Of a stretch of 32,000 nt of DNA, positions 1,087 to 32,000 are shown in pieces. The translations under genes and the position numbers were made by a program. Positions within the stretch are counted from its first letter, which is position 1, and every line of letters starts with the position of its first letter. The notes under the pieces are model-generated. The model had not been told where the DNA came from, searched no databases, and was given only the letters and a program-made list of their open reading frames with translations. Source of the DNA: Akkermansia muciniphila ATCC BAA-835 (lineage in GTDB: Bacteria; Verrucomicrobiota; Verrucomicrobiia; Verrucomicrobiales; Akkermansiaceae); NCBI RefSeq assembly GCF_000020225.1, contig NC_010655.1, positions 2,400,001 through 2,432,000 on the forward strand, given 5' to 3'.

Positions 1087-2175
1087 TTACCGGAGTTTTT
1101 TCAGGATGCTTTTGGCCTGCACGTCGCCCTGGTCCGCCGCTTTCTGGAACCATTCCCGGGCTTTGGCCATGTCCTTGGGCAGGCCGAAACCGGTCTGATA
1201 CATCACGCCCAGGTTGTATTGCTCCGAGGCATAGCCTTCCGCAGCCGCCCGGCGGCGCGTGCGGGACTGTTCCCTGGCTTCCGCAGCGGTAAGGCCCAGA
1301 ACCCGCGCCGCGTCCGGCCACGCGGCTCCGAATCTGGAAGCGGAAGGGGCATAGCCGGCGGCTCCGGCCTTGCGGTGCATTTCCTCCGCTTTTTTCTTAT
1401 CCCTCTTCACGCCGTATTTGCCCTGGTCATACAGGAACGCCATGCCCCAGTAGCCACGGGGGCAGCCCAACTCCGCCGCCTGCTGGAAGCATTCAAAGGC
1501 ATCTTTATATTTTTTGGAACCCATGGCGCGCACGGCGTCGGAAATATGGAGTTCCGCCTCCTTCAAGCCTAGGAATTCCGGAATAGCCGCCCATTCCCTT
1601 TTCAGTTCCTCCCTGTCCCTTTTGGACTTGGGAGGCATGCCGGACGGACCGGAAAAACGGAAAAGGGGGAAGTAACCCTCCATGGCTCCCATGTTGCCCA
1701 GGCCAGACATCAGAAAAACGCCGGGAGAGACCTTCCACATGTGCATGTACTGGATGCGGCCTTCCTGAAGGGATTCCCTGGCCACCCACTCCGGCATGTT
1801 CGCCGGTTCCCCGAATTGTTCCGTCAGGCCCACCAGAAGAGCCTTATAGGCGGATTTCAGCCTGGTCTCATATTCGGAACCACGGTATTTGCTCCGGGAG
1901 TAGAGGACAACGGCCCTCAAGCCGCCGGAGGGGTCATAGTCAAAGTTCAGGGAAAAAGTCTGGCCGCCTATGGACTGCCTGGTTTTAAACACGCCGTTGA
2001 GCCCGGTGCGTGAAAGGAGGGCGTCCGTGGGCGGCCCTTCAAGCTGCTTGCTCCGCCTCAGGGTTTTCAGCACCTGGTCCTTGTCCATCCCCACCTCCAG
2101 TCCCTCATAAAGGGCGGCAAGCAAAGGGGAACATGTGAGAGCGAAGAGTCCAGCAACATAGGCTAGTTTTTTCAT
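1087..2175 (-). CDS. Secreted Sel1-like repeat (SLR/TPR-like) protein
   Basis: 362-aa ORF with an ATG start and an N-terminal signal peptide (MKKLAYVAGLFALTCSPLLAA). The C-terminal half has Sel1 repeats (AAELGCPRGYWGMAFLYDQGKYGVKRDKKKAEEMHRKAGAAG; AAEGYASEQYNLGVMYQTGFGLPKDMAKAREWFQKAADQGD). It ends 15 nt upstream of the pgi start. Confidence 0.8.
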   Translation of the reverse strand: MKKLAYVAGLFALTCSPLLAALYEGLEVGMDKDQVLKTLRRSKQLEGPPTDALLSRTGLNGVFKTRQSIGGQTFSLNFDYDPSGGLRAVVLYSRSKYRGSEYETRLKSAYKALLVGLTEQFGEPANMPEWVARESLQEGRIQYMHMWKVSPGVFLMSGLGNMGAMEGYFPLFRFSGPSGMPPKSKRDREELKREWAAIPEFLGLKEAELHISDAVRAMGSKKYKDAFECFQQAAELGCPRGYWGMAFLYDQGKYGVKRDKKKAEEMHRKAGAAGYAPSASRFGAAWPDAARVLGLTAAEAREQSRTRRRAAAEGYASEQYNLGVMYQTGFGLPKDMAKAREWFQKAADQGDVQAKSILKKLR

Positions 2176-2270: not shown

Positions 2271-3209
2271 TCATTTCCAGTCTACCCACAGTCTTTTCAA
2301 ATAATCCTCCCCGGAGAAATCCGGGGGCATGGGGTCATGAGTCAGGCGGAAACCGGGAACGGCACGGGCCACCATCCTGCGGAAGTCCTCGTGGCCCAGC
2401 TTGCGGCAGTTGCTGGTGCACAGCATCCAGCCGCCCGGTTCCAGGCATTCGCGAGCCAGCGCCACCAGCTCCCCGTAGTGGGATTCCACCCGGAACACCT
2501 TTCCGCGGTCATCCCGGGAAAACGTGGGAGGGTCCAGAATAATGCCGTGAAAGGTGCGGCCCTGCCTGGCGAACCGTTCCAGCCAGCGGCGCGCGTCCCC
2601 CTTGCAGAAATACTGGGCGGAGGGCTCAATGCCGTTCAGCATGAAATTTTCCCTGGCCCAGTCCAGGCACGGCTGCGCCAGATCCAGCGTGGTTGTCTGC
2701 GCTCCGCCCAGGGCCGCATAAACGGAAAAGGCTCCCGTATAGGCAAAAGTATTCAGCACCCTCATGCCCGGAGCGCTTTTTTCCCTCACCCGGCGGCGGT
2801 GGTCGCGCTGATCCAGAAAAATTCCCTGGGAATAACCGGCGGACATGTCTATTTTAAAACGCACTCCCTGCTCCAAGGCCGTAAATTGCAGGGGAAGGAG
2901 CGGCCCGGCGATCTGGACGGGCGCGTCTTTCTGGTTTTGTTCCAGTTTTTTGTGGAATACGGGCATGCCCGTATCCCGGAGTTCGCTTTCCAGGTCCGCA
3001 GGAATGGAACAGCCGCGTGTGGAGACGAGAAGACGATCCGCCATCTGATCCACAAAGACACCGGGGATTCCATCCCCCACCCCGTCCATGACCCGGAACA
3101 TATCCGTATCCGGCGGAATCAATTCCCTGTTGCGTTCCACGCAATAATGATAATTTCTCTCCACGGCAGAGCAAAGAGTAACGGATGAAGAACGTTCCCG
3201 CAATGTCAA
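2271..3209 (-). CDS. Class I SAM-dependent rRNA methyltransferase (RlmI/RlmK-like, COG1092/PF10672 type)
   Basis: 312-aa ORF. Motifs: FRVMDGVGDGIPGVFVDQMADRLLV, VLNTFAYTGAFSVYAALGGA (SAM pocket) and IILDPPTFS (catalytic DPPxF). The track start at 3209 is a TTG, so the true start is uncertain (somewhere in 3140-3209). Confidence 0.85.
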   Translation of the reverse strand: MTLRERSSSVTLCSAVERNYHYCVERNRELIPPDTDMFRVMDGVGDGIPGVFVDQMADRLLVSTRGCSIPADLESELRDTGMPVFHKKLEQNQKDAPVQIAGPLLPLQFTALEQGVRFKIDMSAGYSQGIFLDQRDHRRRVREKSAPGMRVLNTFAYTGAFSVYAALGGAQTTTLDLAQPCLDWARENFMLNGIEPSAQYFCKGDARRWLERFARQGRTFHGIILDPPTFSRDDRGKVFRVESHYGELVALARECLEPGGWMLCTSNCRKLGHEDFRRMVARAVPGFRLTHDPMPPDFSGEDYLKRLWVDWK

Positions 3210-3440
3210 AGAAGCAGGAGCCTCATTTCCTCCGGAGCAAGAGTTCCGCCAGGGAAAAACGGTTATTCGGACGGCCCTCCTTCATCAACAGAGACATTAA
3301 AAAAATCGCCTGCAAGGCTAGACCTTGCAGGCAACAACATTTTTTACTGCCGGAAAAGAGGTTCTCAAGCTCTTCGGCGGCGAACCATCAGGGCCGCCAG
3401 CCCCAGCAGACTCAGGGACGCCGTAGCAGGTTCCGGCACG
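2926..3440. repeat. Direct repeat, left-flank copy 1 (partner 4621-5125)
   Basis: By-eye alignment to 4621-5125 gives about 12 substitutions plus one 10-nt gap (caccggggat, present only in copy 1) over ~515 bp. The repeat covers the methyltransferase 5' end, the intergenic region with its terminator hairpin, and the last ~25 codons (PEP-CTERM tail) of the downstream gene. Confidence 0.9.
3299..3332 (-). terminator. Rho-independent terminator of PEP-CTERM gene A
   Basis: Perfect 10-bp stem gcctgcaagg/ccttgcaggc (3308-3317 / 3323-3332) with a 5-nt loop. On the minus strand it is followed by a 7-U run (A-run 3299-3305). It lies 33 nt downstream of the stop at 3365. Confidence 0.75.
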
Positions 3441-4138
3441 GCAAGACTCCTGGTTGCAGCAACAATTTCTTCAGGGGTCGCTACGCCCGGCGTAATGCCC
3501 ATGCCCGTTACATAGTCCGTGTTAACAAGCACAGTTTGATAGTTTTGGGATGTCGTCAAATCGGTGTAGGCAAAATTCCGACCATTATTGCATGGCACTC
3601 CATTACCCTTGTCATCAACTACTTTTGTTCCCTTTGCTCCGTCTGACTGGACAGCCGCCACGAGAGTAAGGGTGACGTAATCAGTCTCTTCCACGGTGTA
3701 GGAAAGATTCGCCAAACTCTCCAGAGAAAGGTAAGCAGAAGCACCAGGACTCCACACAGATCCCTGGTAGGCAAACTTAAGACCATCCGCCGTCAACATC
3801 AAGCCTATGGAACCGGAAGTTGAGTTTTCGCTTATTCTTAAATCAACCAGCAAAATGTTGAAAAAATCTGCTTCATGTATGGCGCTCCGCATAGCCGAGA
3901 GATTCAGGCTGAGCGTGATGGAGGAAGGATGACGCTCCCCACCGGTGGTAACTGCGGAAGAAATGGCACCTGCAGCAAACCCGTTGACGCTGTCATCTTC
4001 CGGAGAAGAGTAGGAGATATCCCCACCAGAAAAATTCTGCGACAGATCCGTAAAAAATGTAGTAGCGGCAACAGCACTGCCTTGAAGAAGCCCCCCCAAT
4101 AAGAGAGAGATAAAAGTTGAAAACTTCATATGCGACAT
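3365..4138 (-). CDS. PEP-CTERM sorting-domain protein A (secreted or cell-surface, no recognisable catalytic domain)
   Basis: 257-aa ORF with a signal peptide (MKFSTFISLLLGGLLQGSAVAA if started at the second ATG, 4129). The C-terminus VPEPATASLSLLGLAALMVRRRRA has the PEP motif, a TM helix and an Arg cluster, i.e. an exosortase sorting signal. The body is Ser/Thr/Gly/Asn-rich. Confidence 0.8.
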   Translation of the reverse strand: MSHMKFSTFISLLLGGLLQGSAVAATTFFTDLSQNFSGGDISYSSPEDDSVNGFAAGAISSAVTTGGERHPSSITLSLNLSAMRSAIHEADFFNILLVDLRISENSTSGSIGLMLTADGLKFAYQGSVWSPGASAYLSLESLANLSYTVEETDYVTLTLVAAVQSDGAKGTKVVDDKGNGVPCNNGRNFAYTDLTTSQNYQTVLVNTDYVTGMGITPGVATPEEIVAATRSLAVPEPATASLSLLGLAALMVRRRRA

Positions 4139-4141
4139 TGT

Positions 4142-4157
4142 GCGGATTAACTATCCG
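4142..4157. repeat. Inverted repeat, left arm of invertible segment A
   Basis: gcggattaactatccg is the exact reverse complement of 4370-4385. It has an internal dyad, CGGA-ttaacta-TCCG, around an asymmetric 7-bp core. Confidence 0.9.
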
Positions 4158-4369
4158 TTGGGAAAAAACAGGTATTGCACAATGTTCTCAAAAAATGATG
4201 AACAAATATCGTAATTAATTGAAAATCAAATTATATCTATTATATATCATGGAATTTGAAATAAACTCGTCCAAAAAACATTCACAGATATTTTCTACGA
4301 TTTGCCAATCTGTTTTTTCTGTCTGTGAATCTGCGTAAATTCCTTTTTTTTAAAAAAATAGTTTGACAG

Positions 4370-4385
4370 CGGATAGTTAATCCGC
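4370..4385. repeat. Inverted repeat, right arm of invertible segment A
   Basis: cggatagttaatccgc is the reverse complement of 4142-4157. A perfect TTGACA hexamer (4363-4368) lies just inside it. Confidence 0.9.
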
Positions 4386-4603
4386 TCACAAAAAAAGAGG
4401 CCGGATTTTTCATTCGGCTTCTCACAGGTCATTACACTGACCAACAACGATTTCCGCTTATTCAGCATACTGTTCGTTAAGAGCTTCCATGATTTCCCTG
4501 GAAGCTTCCGGAATGTTGGTGCCCGGTCCGAAGATGGCCACAGCTCCGTGTTCCTTCAGGAAGTCATAGTCCCGGACGGGAATAACGCTGCCACAGAAGA
4601 CCA
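4370..4603. repeat. Direct repeat, right-flank copy 1 (partner 6015-6250)
   Basis: Co-linear with 6015-6250: the IR arm, the terminator hairpin (degenerate here), then the 3' end of mutB. The coding part is near-identical, while the short stretch between the hairpin and the stop codon is more diverged and has small indels. Confidence 0.85.
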
Positions 4604-4612
4604 ATGATGTTC
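4458..4612 (-). pseudogene. Relic 3' fragment of methylmalonyl-CoA mutase large subunit (duplication remnant)
   Basis: The reverse strand translates to [47 protein letters not shown]. The intact mutB C-terminus at 6105-6250 reads [47 protein letters not shown]. There is no upstream coding continuation. The adjacent terminator copy (4397-4421) has two stem-disrupting substitutions. Confidence 0.85.
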
Positions 4613-4620
4613 AGAACGTT

Positions 4621-4894
4621 TCTTTCTGGTTTTGTTCCAGTTTTTTGTGGAATACGGGCATGCCCGTATCCCGGAGTTCGCTTTCCAGGTCCGCAGGAAT
4701 GGAACAGCCGCGCGTAGAGACGAGAAGACGATCCGCCATCTGATCCACAAAGATCCATCCCCCGCCCCGTCCATGACCCGGAACATACCCGTATCCGGCG
4801 GAATCAATTCCCTGTTGCGTTCCACGCAATGATGATCATTTCTCTCTACGGCAGAGCAAAGAGTAACGGATGAAGAACGTTCCCGCAATGTCAA
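4621..4894 (-). pseudogene. Relic 5' fragment of the RlmI/RlmK-like methyltransferase (frameshifted duplication remnant)
   Basis: The first ~45 codons match gene 2271-3209 (MTLRERSSSVTLCSAVERNDHHCVERNRELIPPDTGMFRVMDGAGDG vs ...NYHYCVERNRELIPPDTDMFRVMDGVGDG). A 10-nt deletion then shifts the frame. The fragment is truncated at 4621, where it abuts the mutB relic. Confidence 0.9.
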
Positions 4895-4983
4895 AGAAGC
4901 AGGAGCCTCATTTCCTCCGGAGCAAGAGTTCCGCCAGGGAAAAACGGTTATTCGGACGGCCCTCCTTCATCAACAGAGACATT

Positions 4984-5017
4984 AAAAAAATCGCCTGCAA
5001 GGCTAGACCTTGCAGGC
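4984..5017 (-). terminator. Rho-independent terminator of PEP-CTERM gene B (duplicate of 3299-3332)
   Basis: Same 10-bp stem (4993-5002 / 5008-5017), 5-nt loop and 7-U run (A-run 4984-4990), 33 nt downstream of the stop at 5050. Confidence 0.75.
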
Positions 5018-5049
5018 AACAACATTTTTTACTGCCGGAAAAGAGGTTC

Positions 5050-5754
5050 TCAAGCTCTTCGGCGGCGAGCCATCAGGGCCGTCAGCCCCAGCAGACTCAG
5101 GGACGCCGTGGCCGGTTCCGGAACGCTGGCTGTTTCTCCAGAAATAGCCAGAGCATTGAACGTAGGCGTGTGGGAGGAACCCGGAGTATTCACCGTCAGA
5201 ATAATTTCGCCATCTTCATTGGCAATAACGTCACTAATGGTGTACCCCGTGGGAGTCCGGGCCTGAATTGTCTGAGAGTTCGCACCTATGGAAGGAGCCG
5301 CGCTGTCGTAGGTATTGGAAGTCACCAGGGAATTCCAGGCACCGGCCCCCTCAAAAGGACACCCGGTAACAAGGGCAATCTGGTAGGAAGCACCAGCCAC
5401 CAGACCGGAAATAGTCAGGGAAAGAGAAGCTCCTTTGGGGCCGGAGATAAAGGTCTGCCAAGAGTTTCCGAAAGAGATCTGGTTTTCCATAAAAGAATCC
5501 AATCCCTGTGTATCAAAAGAAGTTCCGGAGGAAACCCAGTCCCCAGAAGCGGCGGAAGAAGTAGAACCCAGATTAGCGGAAGAGGCTGCCGTAGCCAGGG
5601 TTGCAACAAATCCGGAACCGGAATCGGTTACAGAAACAGTCTTGGCGGGAGTTTCCGGAAGCAAAGAACTGTTAAAATCAAATAATACAGTAGCAGCACT
5701 CGCGGAAAGCGCGGATACCACAGCCAACATGGAAATAGAGGCGATTCTTCTCAT
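5050..5754 (-). CDS. PEP-CTERM sorting-domain protein B (secreted or cell-surface, unrelated body to protein A)
   Basis: 234-aa ORF with an ATG start and a signal peptide (MRRIASISMLAVVSALSASAATV). The C-terminus VPEPATASLSLLGLTALMARRRRA matches protein A, but upstream of that tail I see no similarity to protein A. Confidence 0.8.
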   Translation of the reverse strand: MRRIASISMLAVVSALSASAATVLFDFNSSLLPETPAKTVSVTDSGSGFVATLATAASSANLGSTSSAASGDWVSSGTSFDTQGLDSFMENQISFGNSWQTFISGPKGASLSLTISGLVAGASYQIALVTGCPFEGAGAWNSLVTSNTYDSAAPSIGANSQTIQARTPTGYTISDVIANEDGEIILTVNTPGSSHTPTFNALAISGETASVPEPATASLSLLGLTALMARRRRA

Positions 5755-5791
5755 AAATAGCAGGTAAACAGCAACTGATTTCAGTCAGTAA

Positions 5792-5809
5792 CGGATTGAC
5801 TATCCGGTG
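5792..5809. repeat. Inverted repeat, left arm of invertible segment B
   Basis: cggattgactatccggtg is the exact reverse complement of 6013-6030. It differs from the A-site core by one base (ttGacta vs ttAacta). Confidence 0.9.
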
Positions 5810-6012
5810 TCAAATTATTTTTTAAAAAAAAGAGGGGGTTATGCGGACGGAACAGATGAAAAAACGGAGTATAGAAAAAATAATAAATAAAAATATCTCC
5901 AAAAATATTGGTTGCGACGTTTATTTTAAATAAATAATATGCTATTTATTATCAATAATTTGAAGTCGATAATAGCTGCTACTCCTGAATATTTTCAATG
6001 TCCGCTTTTTTT

Positions 6013-6030
6013 CACCGGATAGTCAATCCG
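6013..6030. repeat. Inverted repeat, right arm of invertible segment B
   Basis: caccggatagtcaatccg is the reverse complement of 5792-5809. It sits 5 nt from the mutB terminator. Confidence 0.9.
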
Positions 6031-6250
6031 CTCACAAAAAAGAGGCCGGATTTTTCATCCGGCCTCTCGCAACAGGTATTTACCTGATAAACAGGAAATT
6101 CCGTTTAGTCAGCGTACTGTTCGTTAAGAGCTTCCATGATTTCCCTGGAAGCTTCCGGAATGTTGGTGCCCGGGCCGAAGATGGCCACAGCTCCGTGTTC
6201 CTTCAGGAAGTCATAGTCCTGGGCGGGAATAACGCCGCCGCAGAAGACCA
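6015..6250. repeat. Direct repeat, right-flank copy 2 (partner 4370-4603)
   Basis: See 4370-4603. This copy holds the intact terminator and the functional mutB 3' end. Confidence 0.85.
6036..6066 (-). terminator. Rho-independent terminator of the mutA-mutB operon
   Basis: 9-bp stem gaggccgga/tccggcctc (6042-6050 / 6058-6066) with a 7-nt loop. On the minus strand it is followed by a U-run (A-run 6036-6041). It lies 39 nt downstream of the mutB stop. Confidence 0.75.
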
Positions 6251-8249
6251 GGATATCCGGACGGCCCTGCTTGGCAAGTTCCTCCACCAGGGCGGGAAGG
6301 AGAACCTTGTGGCCGGCGGCCAGAGAGCTCATGCCGATCATGTGCACGTCGTTTTCAATCGCCATTTTGGCAGTTTCCTCCGGCGTCTGGAAGAGCGGGC
6401 CCACGTCCACGTCAAAACCGAGGTCGGCATAGGCGGAGGAGACCACCTTGGCGCCGCGGTCATGGCCGTCCTGGCCCATTTTGGCGACAAGGATGCGGGG
6501 ACGACGCCCCGTGCGTTCGGCGAAGTCATCCGTCATCTTGCGGACTTCCTCCACCAGCGGATCTTGACCATAGGATTGAGCGTACACGCCGGTAATGAGT
6601 TTGATTGGTGCTTTATGACGCCCGAAGTGTTTTTCCAGGGCGGAGGAGATTTCACCCAGGGAGGCGCGGGCCTTGGCCGCCTTGATGGCAAGGTCAAGGA
6701 GATTGCCTTCCCCCGTGCGGGCGCATTCGGACAGGGCTTCCAGCGCGGCTTCGCACGCGGCGGAGTCCCGTTCCGCGCGCAGTTTCTGCAGGCGGGCGAT
6801 CTGGGCTTCCCGGACGGTGGTGTTGTCCACTTCCAGAATATCGATCTGGGCTTCCTGTTCCAGACGGTATTTGTTAACGCCGATGATGGGTTCCTTTCCG
6901 GAGTCAATGGCGGCCTGGCGGCGCGCTGCGGCTTCTTCAATGCGCATCTTGGGCAGCCCGGTTTCAATGGCCTTGGCCATGCCTCCGAGTTTTTCCACTT
7001 CCTGAAGGTGGGCCCAGCCCTTGCGAATGAGCTCATTGGTCAGGTATTCCACATAGTAGGAACCGCCCCACGGGTCGATTACCTTGCAGATGGTGGTTTC
7101 ATCCTGAAGATGAAGCTGGGTGTTGCGGGCGATGCGGGCGGAGAAGTCCGTCGGCAGGGCAATCGCTTCGTCCAGGGAGTTCGTGTGCAGGGACTGCGTA
7201 TGGCCGCAGGCAGCGGCTAGGGCCTCAATGCAGGTGCGGGTGACGTTGTTGAACGGGTCCTGTTCCGTGAGGGACCAGCCGGAAGTCTGGGAGTGCGTGC
7301 GCAAGGCCAGGGACTTCGGGTTCTTGGGATTGAACTGCTTGATGAGTTTGGCCCACAGCACGCGGGCGGCGCGCATTTTGGCCACTTCCATGAAGTAATT
7401 CTTGCCCTGGGCCCAGAAGAAGGAAAGACGCGGCGCGAAGGCGTCAATGTCAATGCCCGCCTTGATCCCGGTGCGGACATATTCTAGGCCGTCCGCAAGG
7501 GTGTAGGCCATTTCCAGGTCCGCCGTAGCGCCGGCCTCCTGCATGTGGTAGCCGGAGATGGAAATGGAGTTAAACTTGGGCATGTACTTGGAGGTGAACT
7601 CAAAGATGTCCGCAATAATCCTCATGGAGGGATCAGGCGGGTAAATGTAGGTGTTGCGCACCATGTATTCCTTGAGAATGTCATTCTGGATCGTGCCGGA
7701 GAGCTGGTCCAGCGTGCAGCCCTGTTCCTGGGCGGCGACGATGTAGAAGGCCAGCACGGGCAACACGGCGCCGTTCATGGTCATGGAAACGGACATTTTG
7801 TCCAGGGGAATGCCCTTGAAGAGGATTTCCATGTCCAGAATGGAGTCCACGGCCACGCCGGCCTTGCCCACGTCACCCACCACGCGGGGGTGATCGGAGT
7901 CATAGCCGCGGTGCGTCGCCAGGTCAAAGGCAATGGAAAGGCCCTTCTGGCCCGCCGCCAGGTTGCGGCGGTAGAAGGCATTGGATTCCTCAGCCGTGGA
8001 AAAGCCGGCGTACTGGCGCACCGTCCAGGGGCGCGCCACATACATGGTGGCATACGGTCCGCGGAGGTTGGGAGCCACACCGGCCGTAAAGTCCAGGTGC
8101 AGGCAGTCGTCGTACACGCTTTCCGAGTAGGTGGGCGGCACGGGAATTTGTTCATTGGTCATCCAGGTTTCCGTTTCGGAAGCCGGGGACGGGGCACCAG
8201 CCTTGATTTCAGGATAGGAGGCGGATGCAAAATCAGGAATATTGCTCAT
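6105..8249 (-). CDS. mutB: Methylmalonyl-CoA mutase large (alpha, catalytic) subunit
   Basis: 714 aa. It has the canonical MCM alpha motifs ([51 protein letters not shown]) and a C-terminal B12-binding domain with DxHxxG ([12 protein letters not shown]). Confidence 0.95.
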
Positions 8250-8272
8250 TGGGTGGAATAGGTTGGTGGTTA

Positions 8273-10327
8273 TTAAAGGCCGATTTTGTTTTGAATGGCT
8301 TCAACGGTGTTGTAGCAGTTGGCCTTGACGTGGATGAAGATGTCCACGCCGGCTTCCTTGAATGCTTCCACATAGTCGGCCGGATAACCGGCAAGGGCCA
8401 CCATCATGTCCGGTCTGGTCTCCCTGAGAGCCTTGCAGAAGGCGGGGACGATTTCCGGATAAGTGTCATCCGTGGAGCAGATGACGCACACGGCGCAGCC
8501 GCTTTCCGCAGCTGCCCTGGCCGCGTCTTCCGGAGTTTGGAAGCCGGCCGGATAAACCACATCCAGACCGCCGGCGCGCAGGAAGTCGCGGGAGAAGTCC
8601 GCGCGGGCCTTGTGCTGGCGGAGCGGCCCCATGTTGGCGAAGAAGACCATCGGGCGGGAACCCTTTTCTGCCACCCAGGCGTCAGCCTTGGCGAGCAGGG
8701 ATTCAAAACGTTCCGCCAGGCGGCGCTTCGGCAGGGCTTCCATTTCCAGGGGTTCGCCGCACTTGCAGTCAGCGCCGGCCACCAGGGCCTTGTTGATAAG
8801 GCAGGTGGAAAAGCCTTCTTCGGCGGCCTTGCAGGCGGAGTCCACGCTCATTTCCACGACCGGGAGCTGAATATCCGCATTCTTGCAGCAGCCGTGGCCC
8901 TTGTGGGCGGAACAGCAGGAGCCTTCCGGAACTTCCAGCTTTTTCTCCGCCAGGTTGACATACTGGTTGACGCCCACGATGGACTGCCGGCGCTGGTCCG
9001 CCAGCTCGTAACGCCTGGCGGCGGTGGCGTTCACCTTCTTCTGGATGCTGCCGGCTTTGAGGGCCTTGACGATGCCGCCTTCCTTTTCGATGCCCTGGAA
9101 GAATTCCCATATCTTCCGGGAGGCTTCATCCGTCAGGTTTTCCAGGTACCAGGAACCGCCGGCGGGGTCAACGACCTTGTCCAGATTGCATTCGCCCAGC
9201 AGAATCAGCGGGCAGTTGCGGGCAATGCGGCGAGAGAATTCGTCCGGCATGCGCACGGCAGCGTCAAAGGGAAGAACGTCAATACTGTCCACGCCGCCCA
9301 TGATGGCGGAGAACGCCTGGGCGGAGCCGCGCAGCAGGTTGACCCAGGGATCCACCTTGGAGAGGGTCCAGAAGGAGGTGCGGGCATGGAGCTTGATTTT
9401 GGCAGCTTCCTCGCTGCCGCCGCATTCTTTTACGATGATGGCCCAAAGTTCGCGCAGAGCGCGGATTTTGGCGATTTCCAGGAACAGGTTGGCGCCGATG
9501 GAAACCGTAAAGCGCATGTGCGCCGCAGTTTCATCCACGGAGAGGCCGCGTTCCTCCATGGCGCGCAGGTAGGCCACGGCAGTGGACAGCATGGCGCCCA
9601 CTTCCTCAAAGGCGGAAGCTCCGGAGTCCGCGTAAGGCAGCCCGCTGACGCCGATGGTCTGGAAGCCGGGAGCGTTGGCAACAGCCCATTTGGTCATCAC
9701 GGCCATCTGGTCATAGTAGGCGCAGATGCCCTTCCCCCCGCAAAGGGAGCCCTTCATCACAGCTTTCCCCACCGGGTCATACAGAACGCCGCCCTTGAGG
9801 TCCGCCGTCTTGACGCCGGCGGCCTTGCAGGTGTTCAGGAACATGGAGAGGGTTCCCAGGCCGCAGGAACCGGGAGTGACATATACGGGAAGCCCGTCCA
9901 GCCGGACGCCCCTGAGGGCCGCATCCCAGTCAGCCTGCTTGCGCAGCTTCAGGCCGCATTTGCAGTTGAGCTGAACGTTTACGGCGGTCAGGCCGCGGTC
10001 CAGGTCATGCAGAAGCTTGGCGTTGAAGTCTTCCGGAGAGGAAGCGGGAATGCTCTGGGCGATTTCGCAGGGCTTTTCCATATAGCCCAGGGCGCGCGTT
10101 CCGCGGCGGTACGGAAATTGCCCGGCAGGCATTACCGGGGAATGTTCATCCCATTTGTTATAGATGGGATGCAGGGTAATTCCCTCCACAAGCTTGGTAA
10201 AAAGCTTTTTGTCAAAATCAGCCCCTTTCAGGGCAGCGACTGCTGCCTCGCGCCATTCGGCGTATGTGGCTGGTGCGAATTCTCCGAAATCAATTTCCGG
10301 AGCCGTTGTTTTATTTCCCTGTTGCAT
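8273..10327 (-). CDS. mutA: Methylmalonyl-CoA mutase small (beta) subunit
   Basis: 684 aa with an MCM fold ([24 protein letters not shown]). The C-terminal Rossmann-like domain lacks the DxHxxG cobalamin ligand ([17 protein letters not shown]), as expected for a beta subunit. It ends 23 nt upstream of mutB, matching the mutA-mutB gene order in propionibacteria. Confidence 0.9.
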
Positions 10328-10492
10328 GGCGAAGTCAATGGGTAAGGCCTAATATGTTGGTTTTTAACTATGCGCAAACCAGGCCAAGTTTAAAGCGCAA
10401 CATTATTTTAGGAAATCAAAGTGTAAAGTCCAGCGAGAAAAATACTCCCGTCCGCCCGCAAATGCGAATTTGCTGCATCACGCGAGGCAAAC

Positions 10493-24207: not shown

Positions 24208-24801
24208 ATGAAAAAATACTGGAAATTGATTCAACAGCACCTGAGCGTGGATGCGGACGGCATCCCCGGCCCCAAGACGGCGCTGGCCCTGCTGGACAGG
24301 CTGGGCATCCGCCAACCGGAACAATCCTGGCCCAGCCAGGAGGAAGTGCGCTCCGGGAAATCCGTCTTCGGCCGTGCGGGTGATGAAAGCAACATGACCA
24401 GCATCAAGCTGCCTTATATCATGCGGCTGGCGTGGGAAACAAACACGACCGTTTCCACCATGCGCTGCCACAAGCTGGTGGCGGAACCGCTCGTCCGCAT
24501 CTTCCAGGCTACTCTGGACCATTACGGCATGGAGAAAATCAGGGAACTGGGGCTGGACCTGTACGGCGGCTGCTTCAACAACCGCTCCATCATCGGCGGA
24601 AAGGCCACATCCATGCACGCCTGGGGAATCGCCGTGGACATAGACCCGGACAGAAACGGCCTGAACATCCCCGCGCCGAAAGCGGTATTGTCCGGACCGG
24701 AGTACGCCGCCTTCTGGCAATTCGTGGAAGCGGAGGGGGCCGTATCCCTGGGACGCTCCCGCGACTACGACTGGATGCACTTCCAGTTCTCTACTCTTTG
24801 A
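24208..24801 (+). CDS. M15-family (LAS) zinc peptidoglycan peptidase, endolysin-like
   Basis: 197 aa. It has an N-terminal PG-binding-like fragment (LSVDADGIPGPKTALALL) and an LAS metal site (SMHAWGIAVDID ... DYDWMHFQF). I see no signal peptide. Confidence 0.8.
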   Translation: MKKYWKLIQQHLSVDADGIPGPKTALALLDRLGIRQPEQSWPSQEEVRSGKSVFGRAGDESNMTSIKLPYIMRLAWETNTTVSTMRCHKLVAEPLVRIFQATLDHYGMEKIRELGLDLYGGCFNNRSIIGGKATSMHAWGIAVDIDPDRNGLNIPAPKAVLSGPEYAAFWQFVEAEGAVSLGRSRDYDWMHFQFSTL

Positions 24802-25813
24802 CCGGAGTGGACGCGAACGTCCTCCAGCCCTCCTCCCAGCGGCGGCGGAGGGCTGGCCAGTCCTCACCGTTCCCTCCATGCCCCAGGAAAGAGCGCTTTT
24901 TCAGCTCCCGGAAACTTTCTCCGGGAAGGTGGAGAAGTTCCCCGCGGTCATAGGCATTCTGATCACACATGCCGTTAAAAACGGGAGTCCACTGCCAGCG
25001 GCGCACGCCCAGATAACTTTTGAATGTATCTACCAGTTCCGTCGTGCAGTTGGCGGTGACGGTATGATAATAGCGCGGGCGTTCATGGAGGCTGTTGATT
25101 TTTTCCGCAAACCCCAGAAAGGCCTTTTTCAGGCTTTCCCTGCCGATGTTGATGCGGTACAGGTACATGTCCTCTTTCCGGTAATTGGTGCGCAGGGCGA
25201 ACAGGTCTTCTTCGTCCGCCAGGATGTAAATCACGTTGAATTGCTTGTAAAGGCCAGGGACAGTTCCCTGCTCCACCCCCTCCGGCAGGCGCGTTTCCAC
25301 GGACAAGGCCAGATGCTTCCCATCCTCAAAACCGAAGGACAACATGGTATGGGCCACGAATTCCATCCCATCCCAGTGGCTCACGGCAAAATCCAGCGTA
25401 GCCAGCTTGTCCAGGTCAAAGCGGCGCGTCACATAGCGCGCGTCGAAGTCCCGCTCCGTCCGGTAGATAAAACTGCGCACGTCCTTCACCACGATTTCAT
25501 TTCCGTTGATTTCCACGGAGGGCAGGCGACTCCAGGACGGCTGCCATTCCTTATCGTTCGTCGCCGGTATGCACAGGTAGTACGCCAGCAGCAGGGCCGG
25601 CACTCCCCAGGAAGCGCGCCATAATACGGGCCGTTTTCCGCGGAGGGCGAAGGCGCATGCCATGGCCGCCACGTACAGCCACACCAGCACGGCTCCCCCC
25701 CATACGTTGTAAAAAACCACGCCCGCCGCCCATACGGAGAAACAGAACCACGCCGCCGTCATCAGGATGCGGGCGGCGGCCGGGCACGCGCGGCGCAGGA
25801 AAGTCAAATGCAT
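24791..25813 (-). CDS. DUF4105-like membrane protein
   Basis: 340 aa with three or four N-terminal TM helices followed by a soluble domain containing YHTVTANCTTELV, an NC(T/S)T motif I associate with DUF4105. Its 3' end overlaps the convergent M15 gene by 11 nt. Confidence 0.6.
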   Translation of the reverse strand: MHLTFLRRACPAAARILMTAAWFCFSVWAAGVVFYNVWGGAVLVWLYVAAMACAFALRGKRPVLWRASWGVPALLLAYYLCIPATNDKEWQPSWSRLPSVEINGNEIVVKDVRSFIYRTERDFDARYVTRRFDLDKLATLDFAVSHWDGMEFVAHTMLSFGFEDGKHLALSVETRLPEGVEQGTVPGLYKQFNVIYILADEEDLFALRTNYRKEDMYLYRINIGRESLKKAFLGFAEKINSLHERPRYYHTVTANCTTELVDTFKSYLGVRRWQWTPVFNGMCDQNAYDRGELLHLPGESFRELKKRSFLGHGGNGEDWPALRRRWEEGWRTFASTPVKE

Positions 25814-30985: not shown

Positions 30986-32000
30986 TCATTTGGCAGGGCG
31001 TTTGCCGTACACCAGCGTCCGCCTGCCGTCCCAGGAAACGGCTTCAATCCGCGTAGAACCTTCCGGATAGGGAACCGTGGTGGAGGAATTATCCCTGGAA
31101 TCTGTCCCCACCATGGTGATGCGGACCATTTCCCTGTCTTTGTATGTTTCAAAGACGACGGCGTTTTTCCACACGTCATGGGAAACAACGCGCCTGTTGC
31201 CCTGCTCCGTAACGCCCTGGTTGTAAACGCCGCGGACAGGCAGTCGGTTCTTATATGCTTCCGCGCTGTTGACGGAAATATAGTAAATGACGGGGCTTTC
31301 CGGCTTTTTGTACTTCCTGGCGTAGGCAATCAGGTTCTTGCAGTCGGCCTCCGTGATGGTCATGCGGGCGCAGGTGTAGTCGTCCAATTCCTGGTCAATG
31401 GGCTTGAGCATGCCCGTTTTCCGGAAAAAATCCGTCAGGTCCTGTCTGGCGGCGTCGCAGGCGTTCTTCATGAACGCAAGCTGGAGCTCGCCGTCCTTCT
31501 TGCCCCTGGTATCCATCTTGATGGCCTTATAAAAGATATCCGGATAAAAGTCGGGATTACCCTTCCCGGCTACCTTGAAATACAGCTCAAGCTGCCACAG
31601 GGGGGCCAGCTTGACAAAATGGTCGTGCACCATCGGACGGTTATCCCCGCCGGAACGCTTGTCCGGCCCGCTCTGGACAAGCCAGTTTTCCCCCTTCAAA
31701 ATGCCGTTGTTCAGATAGGCGTTGAAGCGTCCGCCAATCATGTTGCCGTCCCCGCCGTTGATGCGTTCATGCTCCAGGCGCATGCTGGAGGGATTCAGCA
31801 TGTAATTCACGTAAGCGGAGTAAATGTTATTGGTCACTTCTCCGGTGGAGACCCATTTCATGGCGGGGCGCACCTGGTTGACGTGGCCGAACTCATGGGC
31901 AATCCCCCAGGCGCTGCCGGGAATCCTGTCCGGATTGCCGACCTCCTTCATGGTGCCGTTATGAAAGGCGGCCCCCGTGCCGTCCGCGTGCATGAACCCG
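30986..32000 (-). CDS. M60-like (enhancin/gluzincin) metallopeptidase, partial (N-terminus beyond the right edge)
   Basis: The reading frame is open to the window edge. It has an HEXXH zinc motif in the M60 context (SAWGIAHEFGHVNQV ... TGEVTNNIYS) plus a C-terminal beta-rich domain. This family includes mucin O-glycopeptidases. Confidence 0.85.
   Translation of the reverse strand, partial: GFMHADGTGAAFHNGTMKEVGNPDRIPGSAWGIAHEFGHVNQVRPAMKWVSTGEVTNNIYSAYVNYMLNPSSMRLEHERINGGDGNMIGGRFNAYLNNGILKGENWLVQSGPDKRSGGDNRPMVHDHFVKLAPLWQLELYFKVAGKGNPDFYPDIFYKAIKMDTRGKKDGELQLAFMKNACDAARQDLTDFFRKTGMLKPIDQELDDYTCARMTITEADCKNLIAYARKYKKPESPVIYYISVNSAEAYKNRLPVRGVYNQGVTEQGNRRVVSHDVWKNAVVFETYKDREMVRITMVGTDSRDNSSTTVPYPEGSTRIEAVSWDGRRTLVYGKRPAK

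Follow-up and report, generated by a model that had tools for sequence, protein, structure and literature searches.

Two PEP-CTERM genes with separate invertible switches in a tandem duplication at the mutB locus of Akkermansia muciniphila

In Bacteroides fragilis, the global invertase Mpi acts in trans on many promoters of surface structures that are flanked by inverted repeats (IRs), and the genome also has large inversions and shufflons. The switches of Salmonella (Hin/fljBA-fliC) and Escherichia coli (fimS) encode or adjoin their own recombinase and carry a complete promoter. Tandem duplicates such as the rRNA operons and the tuf genes undergo concerted evolution, which proceeds by gene conversion and unequal crossing-over. 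Here we describe a locus that resembles each of these systems in part. It lies in a stretch of 32,000 nucleotides from the chromosome of Akkermansia muciniphila ATCC BAA-835 (NC_010655.1, positions 2,400,001 to 2,432,000; hereafter the window, numbered from its first nucleotide) and consists of a tandem segmental duplication between mutB, the gene for the large subunit of methylmalonyl-CoA mutase, and a methyltransferase gene. Within the duplication, two genes for PEP-CTERM proteins, A and B, are each preceded by an invertible element (inverton).

Invertons of A. muciniphila have been described before, namely those of 'group 138' (PMC11892184), beside which PEP-CTERM genes are enriched, and the switch of the phase-variable capsule locus cps1 (PMC13343947), where the motif CGGATT..AATCCG is quoted from Jiang et al. 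2019. The IRs of the window match this motif; the two elements are of similar size (~200–240 bp), lie likewise directly upstream of surface-structure genes, occur in both orientations and have no adjoining recombinase gene. Thus, PEP-CTERM-adjacent invertons of this type and the cps1 switch itself are already published. Unlike those invertons, the two switches described here stand in tandem inside a segmental duplication together with dead fragments of housekeeping genes, and their IRs are the breakpoints of deletions, of an apparent ~120-kb inversion and of a possible transfer of a gene-plus-switch module to cps1. We did not find the tandem array or its links to cps1 described: the searchable literature contained no account of a tandem two-switch array, of structural alleles, of flank homogenisation or of IR links to cps1, nor any mention of Amuc_1980–1982.

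The locus shares with the Mpi system a recombinase presumed to act in trans on many IR-flanked promoters, independent switching, combinatorial surfaces and chromosome rearrangement between different sites. It differs in phylum and IR, in its targets, which are single small PEP-CTERM proteins plus a capsule locus, and in its promoter, which appears to be split, with the -35 hexamer inside the invertible part and the -10 hexamer outside. By analogy with Hin/fljBA-fliC and fimS, a short invertible segment bearing a promoter element would set the expression of the adjacent surface-protein gene; unlike them, the locus offers tandem duplicated slots with interchangeable gene bodies. As in the rRNA operons and tuf genes, the copies within a genome are the more alike, private substitutions are found in both, and copy number has been changed by recombination between repeats. 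Unlike in those cases, only the non-functional flanks are homogenised, intact housekeeping genes are the likely donors, and the unrelated cores cannot convert each other.

A. muciniphila is a leading candidate for a therapeutic gut bacterium, and its surface governs contact with mucus, phages and the immune system. The locus means that one strain can carry two unrelated surface proteins under independent on/off switches, and it explains why strains have no cassette here, one, two or hybrids. The dead gene fragments act as a built-in tracer that makes its history directly testable. The duplication had been described in an earlier note, made from the sequence alone, whose observation was correct and whose interpretation proved half right; the comparative data presented below raise the interest of the locus beyond the duplication alone.

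The tandem duplication and its two gene bodies

All genes of the region lie on the minus strand (Table 1), and mutA comes after mutB. The gene order is the expected product of a tandem duplication of the interval from the 3' end of mutB to the 5' end of the gene for an RlmI-like S-adenosylmethionine (SAM)-dependent rRNA methyltransferase. The first 284 nt of the methyltransferase gene (2926–3209) form the left end of duplication unit 2, and the last ~160 nt of mutB are the source of the fragment at 4458–4617, which carries fragment-specific changes such as an ending ..YAE* in place of ..YAD*. Repeat detection and exact counts agreed on the two units with unrelated gene bodies reported in the earlier note, which had further asked whether the junctions are identical by descent. 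A 70-nt probe of the junction matched at 100% in at least 15 other independent assemblies and at 87%, in the same position, in a diverged haplotype of gene A (A'). The junction is therefore shared by descent and old, and the head-to-tail units that it separates constitute a tandem segmental duplication. The same structure and junction recur in three complete genomes (CP042830.1, CP071807.1 and CP036293.1) and in dozens of long contigs of independent origin. In CP071807.1 every locus probe matches at 100%, with both switches oriented as in the window, and CP042830.1 matches the window locus except for homopolymer indels in its inverted inverton A. The mutB and methyltransferase fragments are nearest to the own genes of A. 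muciniphila (95% and 97%, respectively; other species 81–89%). The methyltransferase search returned matches in Akkermansia only, and the matches of its product to RlmI/RlmK-like NCBIfam models score under the equivalog cut-offs.

The left flanks of the units (2926–3440 versus 4621–5125) differ by 12 substitutions and one 10-nt gap at 3059–3068 (97.7% identity); seven of the substitutions fall in the methyltransferase 5' fragment and the other five in the PEP-CTERM tail, and the 155-nt spacer is free of them. An exact recount thus agrees with the ~515 bp, ~12 substitutions and single gap that had been estimated by eye. The right flanks, put at ~235 bp in the same note, correspond to 4362–4603 versus 6008–6250 and carry ~22 substitutions plus small gaps over ~242 nt (~90% identity), with weaker mutB homology extending to ~4617.

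Across strains, the 155-nt spacer exists as two deep haplotypes. In L055 and L051 (L-numbers label the compared Akkermansia contigs and assemblies), unit 1 has one haplotype and unit 2 the other, 15–18 mismatches and 4–5 gaps apart. In the window, L033 and L042, both units hold the first haplotype in identical copies, those of L042 sharing one private single-nucleotide polymorphism (SNP); in L056, both units hold the second haplotype, again in identical copies and with two private differences in common. The methyltransferase fragment of L033 has the full-gene sequence without the 10-nt gap, i.e. it was overwritten by the full gene. Because spacer identity is strain-specific, with private SNPs in both copies, the flanks undergo gene conversion, and the copies within one genome (window, L033, L042 and L056, compared with L055 and L051) are more alike than the same copy between genomes, as in other cases of concerted evolution. 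The pattern of the window itself, 0/155 differences beside 7/284 and the gap, points to conversion as well. Ongoing gene conversion of the flanks was one of two alternatives offered in the earlier note, and the spacer comparison supports it; we also agree that a simple duplicate-and-diverge history fits poorly. In two short contigs, L036 (JXMQ01000020.1, 2133 bp) and L037 (1686 bp), a methyltransferase 5' end of the fragment type, including the 10-nt deletion, comes after gene A. Both contigs begin and end in the same repeat, and they would represent either conversion in the reverse direction, over the start of the functional gene, or more than one A unit.

Between the flanks, the bodies of A (3441–4138) and B (5126–5754) gave no alignment. 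BLASTP matched only the last 25 residues of the two proteins (22/25 identical), and when the two families were compared by hhalign after trimming of signal peptide and tail, the probability was 0.7%, or 0.05% with a deeper A profile. A search of the A body against 1.84 billion cluster representatives yielded 13 related clusters, most of them with a different PEP-CTERM tail type. A and B are two separate protein families, not diverged copies. The absence of detectable similarity between the bodies, noted earlier by eye, has thus passed the sensitive profile alignment that had been proposed to refute it (probability at most 0.7%).

Both proteins have the features of PEP-CTERM proteins. Their tails read VPEPATASLSLLGL.ALM.RRRRA, combining the PEP motif with a hydrophobic helix and a basic cluster, and hydrophobic signal-peptide-like N-termini, ending AVA/A and SASA/A, are visible in the two. 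In A, PF07589 and TIGR02595 match above their cut-offs on residues 233–256; the scores of A and B are 21.8 and 21.3 bits for PF07589 (cut-off 20.7) and 20.4 and 19.8 bits for TIGR02595 (cut-off 16). No exosortase is encoded within the window; an EpsH-like gene and 23 PEP-CTERM proteins have been reported for MucT (PMC4960237). The true start of gene A is probably the ATG at 4129, which gives 254 aa; the '254-aa' and '226-aa' neighbours, considered at one point as new alleles, are merely alternative start-codon calls of A and B. The AlphaFold2 model of B (predicted local distance difference test score, pLDDT, 79) is a beta-sandwich with weak best matches to CBM35/CBM6 (E >= 1.2e-3, template modelling score 0.26–0.48), which we treat as a hint; the AlphaFold model of A (pLDDT 39) was too poor for a fold comparison with B.

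Table 1. Features of the duplicated region and adjoining genes, in window coordinates
Feature	Position	Strand	Remarks
Sel1-repeat protein	1087–2175	-	
RlmI-like SAM-dependent rRNA methyltransferase, complete	2271–3209	-	Pfam Methyltrans_SAM 1.9e-21
Spacer 3' of gene A, 155 nt	3210–3364	-	Terminator hairpin 3305–3335; 100% identical to 4895–5049
Gene A, PEP-CTERM surface protein, 257 aa	3365–4138	-	
Inverton A	4143–4384	.	IR cores CGGATTAACTATCCG (4143–4157), CGGATAGTTAATCCG (4370–4384); 212-bp invertible block 4158–4369
Copy of mutB terminator hairpin	4396–4422	-	From repeat and inverted-repeat detection and alignment
Dead mutB 3' fragment	4437–4617	-	Final ~160 nt of coding sequence, with spacer past the stop codon
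Duplication junction	4618–4620	.	mutB 3' fragment joined to methyltransferase position 284; placed +/- 3 nt
Dead methyltransferase 5' fragment	4621–4894	-	7 substitutions and a frameshifting 10-nt deletion versus 2926–3209
Spacer 3' of gene B, 155 nt	4895–5049	-	Terminator hairpin 4990–5020
Gene B, PEP-CTERM surface protein, 234 aa	5050–5754	-	
Inverton B	5792–6030	.	IRs 5792–5809, 6013–6030 (core CGGATTGACTATCCG / CGGATAGTCAATCCG); 203-bp invertible block 5810–6012
mutB intrinsic terminator	6040–6068	-	
mutB (methylmalonyl-CoA mutase large subunit), complete	6105–8249	-	NF006944, 1287 bits

The two invertons and their promoter elements

The IR core CGGAT-N5-ATCCG occurs at four sites in the 32 kb (4143–4157/4370–4384 and 5792–5806/6016–6030), against 0.04 expected, and the repeat cores CGGATAGTTAATCCG and CGGATAGTCAATCCG have these four occurrences and no other in the window. 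Both elements are found in both orientations: inverton B is an exact 203-bp reverse complement between L032 and L031, which are otherwise identical assemblies, and inverton A shows an exact 212-bp inversion between L041 and L042. Motif-matching IR pairs that bound exact inversions identify the two as invertons of the Akkermansia type. Their interiors are ~60% similar and, in the window, oppositely oriented (alignment score 139 to the reverse complement and 83 forward; shuffles 5.7 +/- 14). The switch cores, described earlier as clearly more diverged than the flanks, are real IR-bounded elements. Three of the four possible combinations of the TTGACA end being proximal or distal to the gene (B/A: proximal/distal, distal/distal and proximal/proximal) occur in two-cassette assemblies, and the two switches therefore flip independently. 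The earlier description of two switch-controlled cassettes holds for each unit in its own right. In CP042830.1 (L032 / L044), the inverted inverton A is 8 nt shorter; it shows only 1–2-nt homopolymer losses and resembles a long-read consensus error.

An end block of ~55 nt, T6-8 A6-8 TA(A/G)TTTGACA followed by the IR, is kept in the A, A', B and L001 elements, whose interiors are otherwise ~60% alike. In the fixed flank on the gene side, each gene served by such a switch has, 16–18 nt beyond TTGACA, a hexamer that begins with TA or resembles a -10 box: TATAAG (D233, a further cassette type described below), TATGAA (L062/L006), TAATTG (wza of cps1), TACTGA (B) and CACAAT (A). From this arrangement we infer a split promoter, with an UP element and the -35 hexamer on the invertible part and the -10 hexamer in the fixed flank. 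In the window, the T-run/A-run and TTGACA end of inverton B faces gene B and the TTGACA end of inverton A faces away from gene A; judging from these motifs, B is probably ON and A OFF in this state.

The analogy with antigenic variation from silent cassettes (pilE/pilS or vlsE type) does not extend to this locus, where each cassette has its own switch and the bodies are non-homologous.

Alleles of the site and junctions with cps1

At the same site, a single B is found in L001, a sister species (94% amino acid identity), and in L062 (74%); L005 has a distant member of the B family there, and L006 a third, unrelated body type whose signal peptide and tail are B-like. The site of L004 has no cassette. 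B is a conserved resident of the mutB–methyltransferase site across the genus and is under purifying selection, with a ratio of nonsynonymous to synonymous substitution rates (dN/dS) of 0.09–0.10. Between A and A', dN/dS is 0.69 and the synonymous divergence (dS) is 0.22, several times the background between the same genomes. The term 'hypervariable locus' used in the earlier note therefore suits the fast-evolving A and overstates the case for B, which is conserved across species. Outside the species, A has its closest relative in P0012 (52%), whose gene is found beside purA, not mutB (L058, L059, 1–230), with an IR pair of its own, CTAGCGGATTCTAAATCCGCTAG; the contigs end at this switch.

Other genomes show further features. 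In L004 (9650–10000; a GTDB representative labelled A. muciniphila 'Lapin-015', methyltransferase 84% identical), the gap of only ~350 bp between mutB and the methyltransferase gene contains a short tandem repeat (translated SIKSIK.../MDFMDF...). A small opposite-strand signal-peptide protein with a conserved C-terminal ..SLV/IELD..YYADGH.FPL, absent from the window, lies between the cassette site and the methyltransferase gene in L003 (8646–9158) and L005 (9368–9691). In L065 (5001–7914) and L066 (87–3000), from a more distant Akkermansia, the B-family PEP-CTERM gene P0052 (59% to B) is directly followed by genes for a D12-class DNA methyltransferase and a tyrosine recombinase (Phage_integrase), an arrangement that might point to the invertase or else to a methylase subject to phase variation.

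Within the species, the survey covered A. muciniphila genomes with identical MutB, a protein for which the assembly collection lists the exact sequence in over 10,000 blocks. The commonest allele among the complete genomes is a dead remnant (L048, L049, L050, L054 and L057, ~8146–8456 in each), in which a deletion running from within the distal IR to 20 nt beyond the proximal IR has removed the switch and B is cut to an open reading frame (ORF) of 57 aa made of its first 126 nt and the sorting tail. Because many strains hold only this remnant, the proteins are dispensable at the mutB locus, which fits variable surface or adhesion factors. L053 has a single B; B+A is found in the window, L052 and L055 (A disrupted), B+A' in L051 and L112–L118, and the remnant plus A, with an identical junction, in L056. 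In L077 (7136–7837), L078 (1003–1704) and L085 (380–1081), slot 1 is occupied by a fourth cassette type, D233, with its own switch. D233 is a PEP-CTERM protein of 233 aa with a weak BLASTP match to A' (37% over 120 aa), and its switch has the best-looking candidate split promoter (GTTGACA, IR, TATAAG).

Genes A and A' stand beside an intact mutB in derived forms only (L038 and L040; L060, L061 and L111). In L038 and L040, mutB is normal until ~60–120 nt before its end and of the fragment type from there on, so that MutB ends ..EQYAE*, whereas all functional MutB proteins in the genus end ..EQYAD*. Such a gene would be expected from homologous recombination between mutB and the fragment that removes unit 1. 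In L060, L061 and L111, mutB and its own terminator are followed by a B-type switch interior and then by the flank and gene of A', the switch point lying at most ~10 nt inside the gene-side IR; recombination between the directly oriented gene-side IRs of a B+A' array would be expected to give this product. Single-cassette versions, which the earlier note had proposed to look for, thus exist for B (L001, L062 and L053) and for A only as derived deletions. Its suggestion that a second allele was captured from a single-A chromosome is not borne out, since every single-A form that we found has either a MutB ending in ..EQYAE* or an IR-fused B-type switch.

In thousands of assemblies, breakpoints at the IRs link the same elements to cps1, a locus at 2.527 Mb that is bordered by ftsK on one side and four conserved genes on the other, 124 kb from the mutB module. 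Scanning metagenome contigs with the A/A'-type spacer yielded 28, of which 24 continue from the A'-type switch and its IR not into gene A' but into TAATTGAG..., wza and the Wzy-type capsule locus. The native upstream region of cps1 (L102–L105) has its own IRs and a 153-nt interior, which occurs in either orientation. In the common variant, the ftsK flank is unchanged up to ..CGAATTTCAAATCC and is followed by the B 5' untranslated region, gene B, the spacer, the methyltransferase fragment, the junction, the mutB fragment and an A'-type switch, closing with ..AATCCGC, after which comes the normal wza flank; the native interior of 153 nt is absent. The A'-type switch on the cps1 side has 99.5% identity to its counterpart at the mutB locus and has likewise been seen in both orientations. 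All of the 24–25 longest contigs read for the Wza variant P0193 (581 blocks) and the B variant P0249 (2181 blocks) have the order ftsK–B–fragments–inverton–wza, including contigs of 2.79–2.93 Mb. Dead fragments of mutB and the methyltransferase gene beside cps1 can only derive from the duplication at the mutB locus, and the module has therefore moved; its ends lie in IR half-sites, and the breakpoints at cps1 fall at a shared AATCCG half-site. Furthermore, L077, L078, L084 and L087 have an intact mutB joined straight to wza via the array or a single switch, which implies an inversion of ~120 kb between the two loci. In these contigs, as in L060, L111 and the cps1 module, the breakpoints at non-partner IRs distinguish one genome from another as fixed differences; gene B was never seen inverted between the two local invertons.

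We regard it as a real possibility, to be held tentatively, that the Akkermansia invertase recombines IRs of different invertons. The B module with its scar would then have moved 124 kb and replaced the interior of the cps1 switch, the capsule would be driven by a switch from the mutB locus in a large part of the population, with B lacking a switch interior of its own, and a chromosome-wide inverton network would rewire phase-variable surface structures. None of this recombination with cps1 was foreseen in the earlier note. If switch sites do recombine distant loci, differences in cps1 phase variation may reflect which switch precedes cps1, the orientation of the 120-kb segment may vary, and inverton surveys based on a single reference would miss or mis-assign such events. 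Canonical, polarity-respecting steps of inversion, deletion and integration alone were tried as a route to the cps1 arrangement and rejected, as every path that we tried leaves an extra switch interior.

History of the locus

The account that explains these data best, and that we consider probable overall, combines an old tandem duplication, replacement of the gene body in one slot, independent switching and instability driven by the IRs and flanks. The duplication copied a stretch that starts ~160 nt ahead of the mutB stop codon and extends to nt 284 of the methyltransferase gene, giving two head-to-tail slots. In each slot, an invertible element of ~240 bp and a PEP-CTERM gene lie between two terminators. 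Slot 1 would have kept the resident B and slot 2 would have come to hold A, from an unrelated family, when the content of one slot between the switch and the shared C-terminal sorting signal was replaced; the boundaries of the replacement would be sequences common to other inverton-controlled PEP-CTERM loci. A recombinase encoded elsewhere in the genome would flip each element separately, by exact inversion between its IRs. Three processes, all fed by the repeated flanks and IRs, destabilise the array: gene conversion keeps the flanks alike, a unit drops out when a gene undergoes homologous recombination with its own fragment, and IRs of different invertons recombine with one another. The last of these may have produced the hybrid switch–gene fusions, the ~120-kb inversion to cps1 and the transfer of the slot-1 module with its scar to a position before cps1.

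Several observations weigh against parts of this account. No donor of the A body was found, and a Pfam scan detected no recombinase domain in any large ORF of the window. With regard to the age of the duplication and the source of A', the dS of 0.22 between A and A' exceeds the dS of 0.09–0.15 between the window and L001, although L001 has only B. The assignment of ON and OFF states has to contend with the poor -10 candidate of B (TACTGA) and with a scan for the sigma-70 consensus, which gave 6 sites against 3.5 expected, not above shuffles, and which we did not use as evidence. L038 and L040, both short k-mer contigs spanning an identical stretch of 60 nt, are possibly assembly walks, and the cps1 arrangement requires at least one non-canonical event. 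An import of A' from one of the sampled sister species was considered as well and set aside, the fragments being nearest to A. muciniphila's own genes.

Among the alternatives, allele capture would have joined a single-A and a single-B chromosome through one homologous crossover and one illegitimate join, with the flank differences reflecting parental divergence. The variety of cassette types that the site holds between genomes and species (B, A/A', D233, the L006 type and the dead remnant) speaks for it, as do the two deep spacer haplotypes in the two units of L055 and L051 and the states that the A-unit spacer shares with the sister species L001 and not with the B-unit spacer. We nevertheless consider it unlikely, given that no pristine single-A chromosome was found, that the MutB proteins of L038 and L040 have the pseudogene-specific ..YAE* ending, that L060 and L111 have a B-type switch interior IR-fused to A', that both gene fragments are nearest to the species' own genes and that strain-specific spacer identity needs conversion anyway. 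A recent duplication whose flanks are alike without any gene conversion is improbable. The 97.7% identity of the left flanks in the window is near the within-species neutral dS of 0.03–0.05, and the right flanks are ~90% identical, but the same junction at 87% in the A' haplotype, the range of 0 to 18 inter-unit spacer differences per 155 nt by strain, with private SNPs in both copies, and the unequal divergence of segments of one flank (0/155 versus 7/284 and a 10-nt gap) all contradict recency.

A plain duplication followed by divergence, with A and B being paralogues changed beyond recognition under diversifying selection while the flanks stayed similar, seems very improbable to us. The B family is still recognisable at 29–39% identity where the methyltransferase is ~57–79% identical, purifying selection acts on B, the A body belongs with relatives of its own whose sorting tails are of another type, and the profile–profile probability is 0.05%; these facts outweigh the fast evolution of A (dN/dS 0.69) and the switch interiors, which, homologous or duplicated, are already down to ~60% similarity. 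Finally, short-read contigs break in this region and many end at IRs or at the junction, as they would if repeats had been collapsed or mis-joined. An assembly artefact of this kind, which the earlier note had named as a way in which it could be wrong, is practically excluded by the identical architecture of several complete genomes and dozens of independent long contigs. The old duplication with replacement of one slot's body thus stays our preferred explanation.

A scan of the whole window against Rfam gave no matches. Two long ORFs on the plus strand have no family matches, one at 8225–10345, antisense to mutA, and one at 40–1002, at the left edge; they are most likely G+C-rich antisense artefacts. 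A protein with an Lnb_N domain (24791–25813, minus strand) and an enhancin-like, mucin-directed peptidase of family M60 (30986–31993, minus strand) are encoded further along, both of them ordinary in a mucin degrader and unrelated to the duplication.

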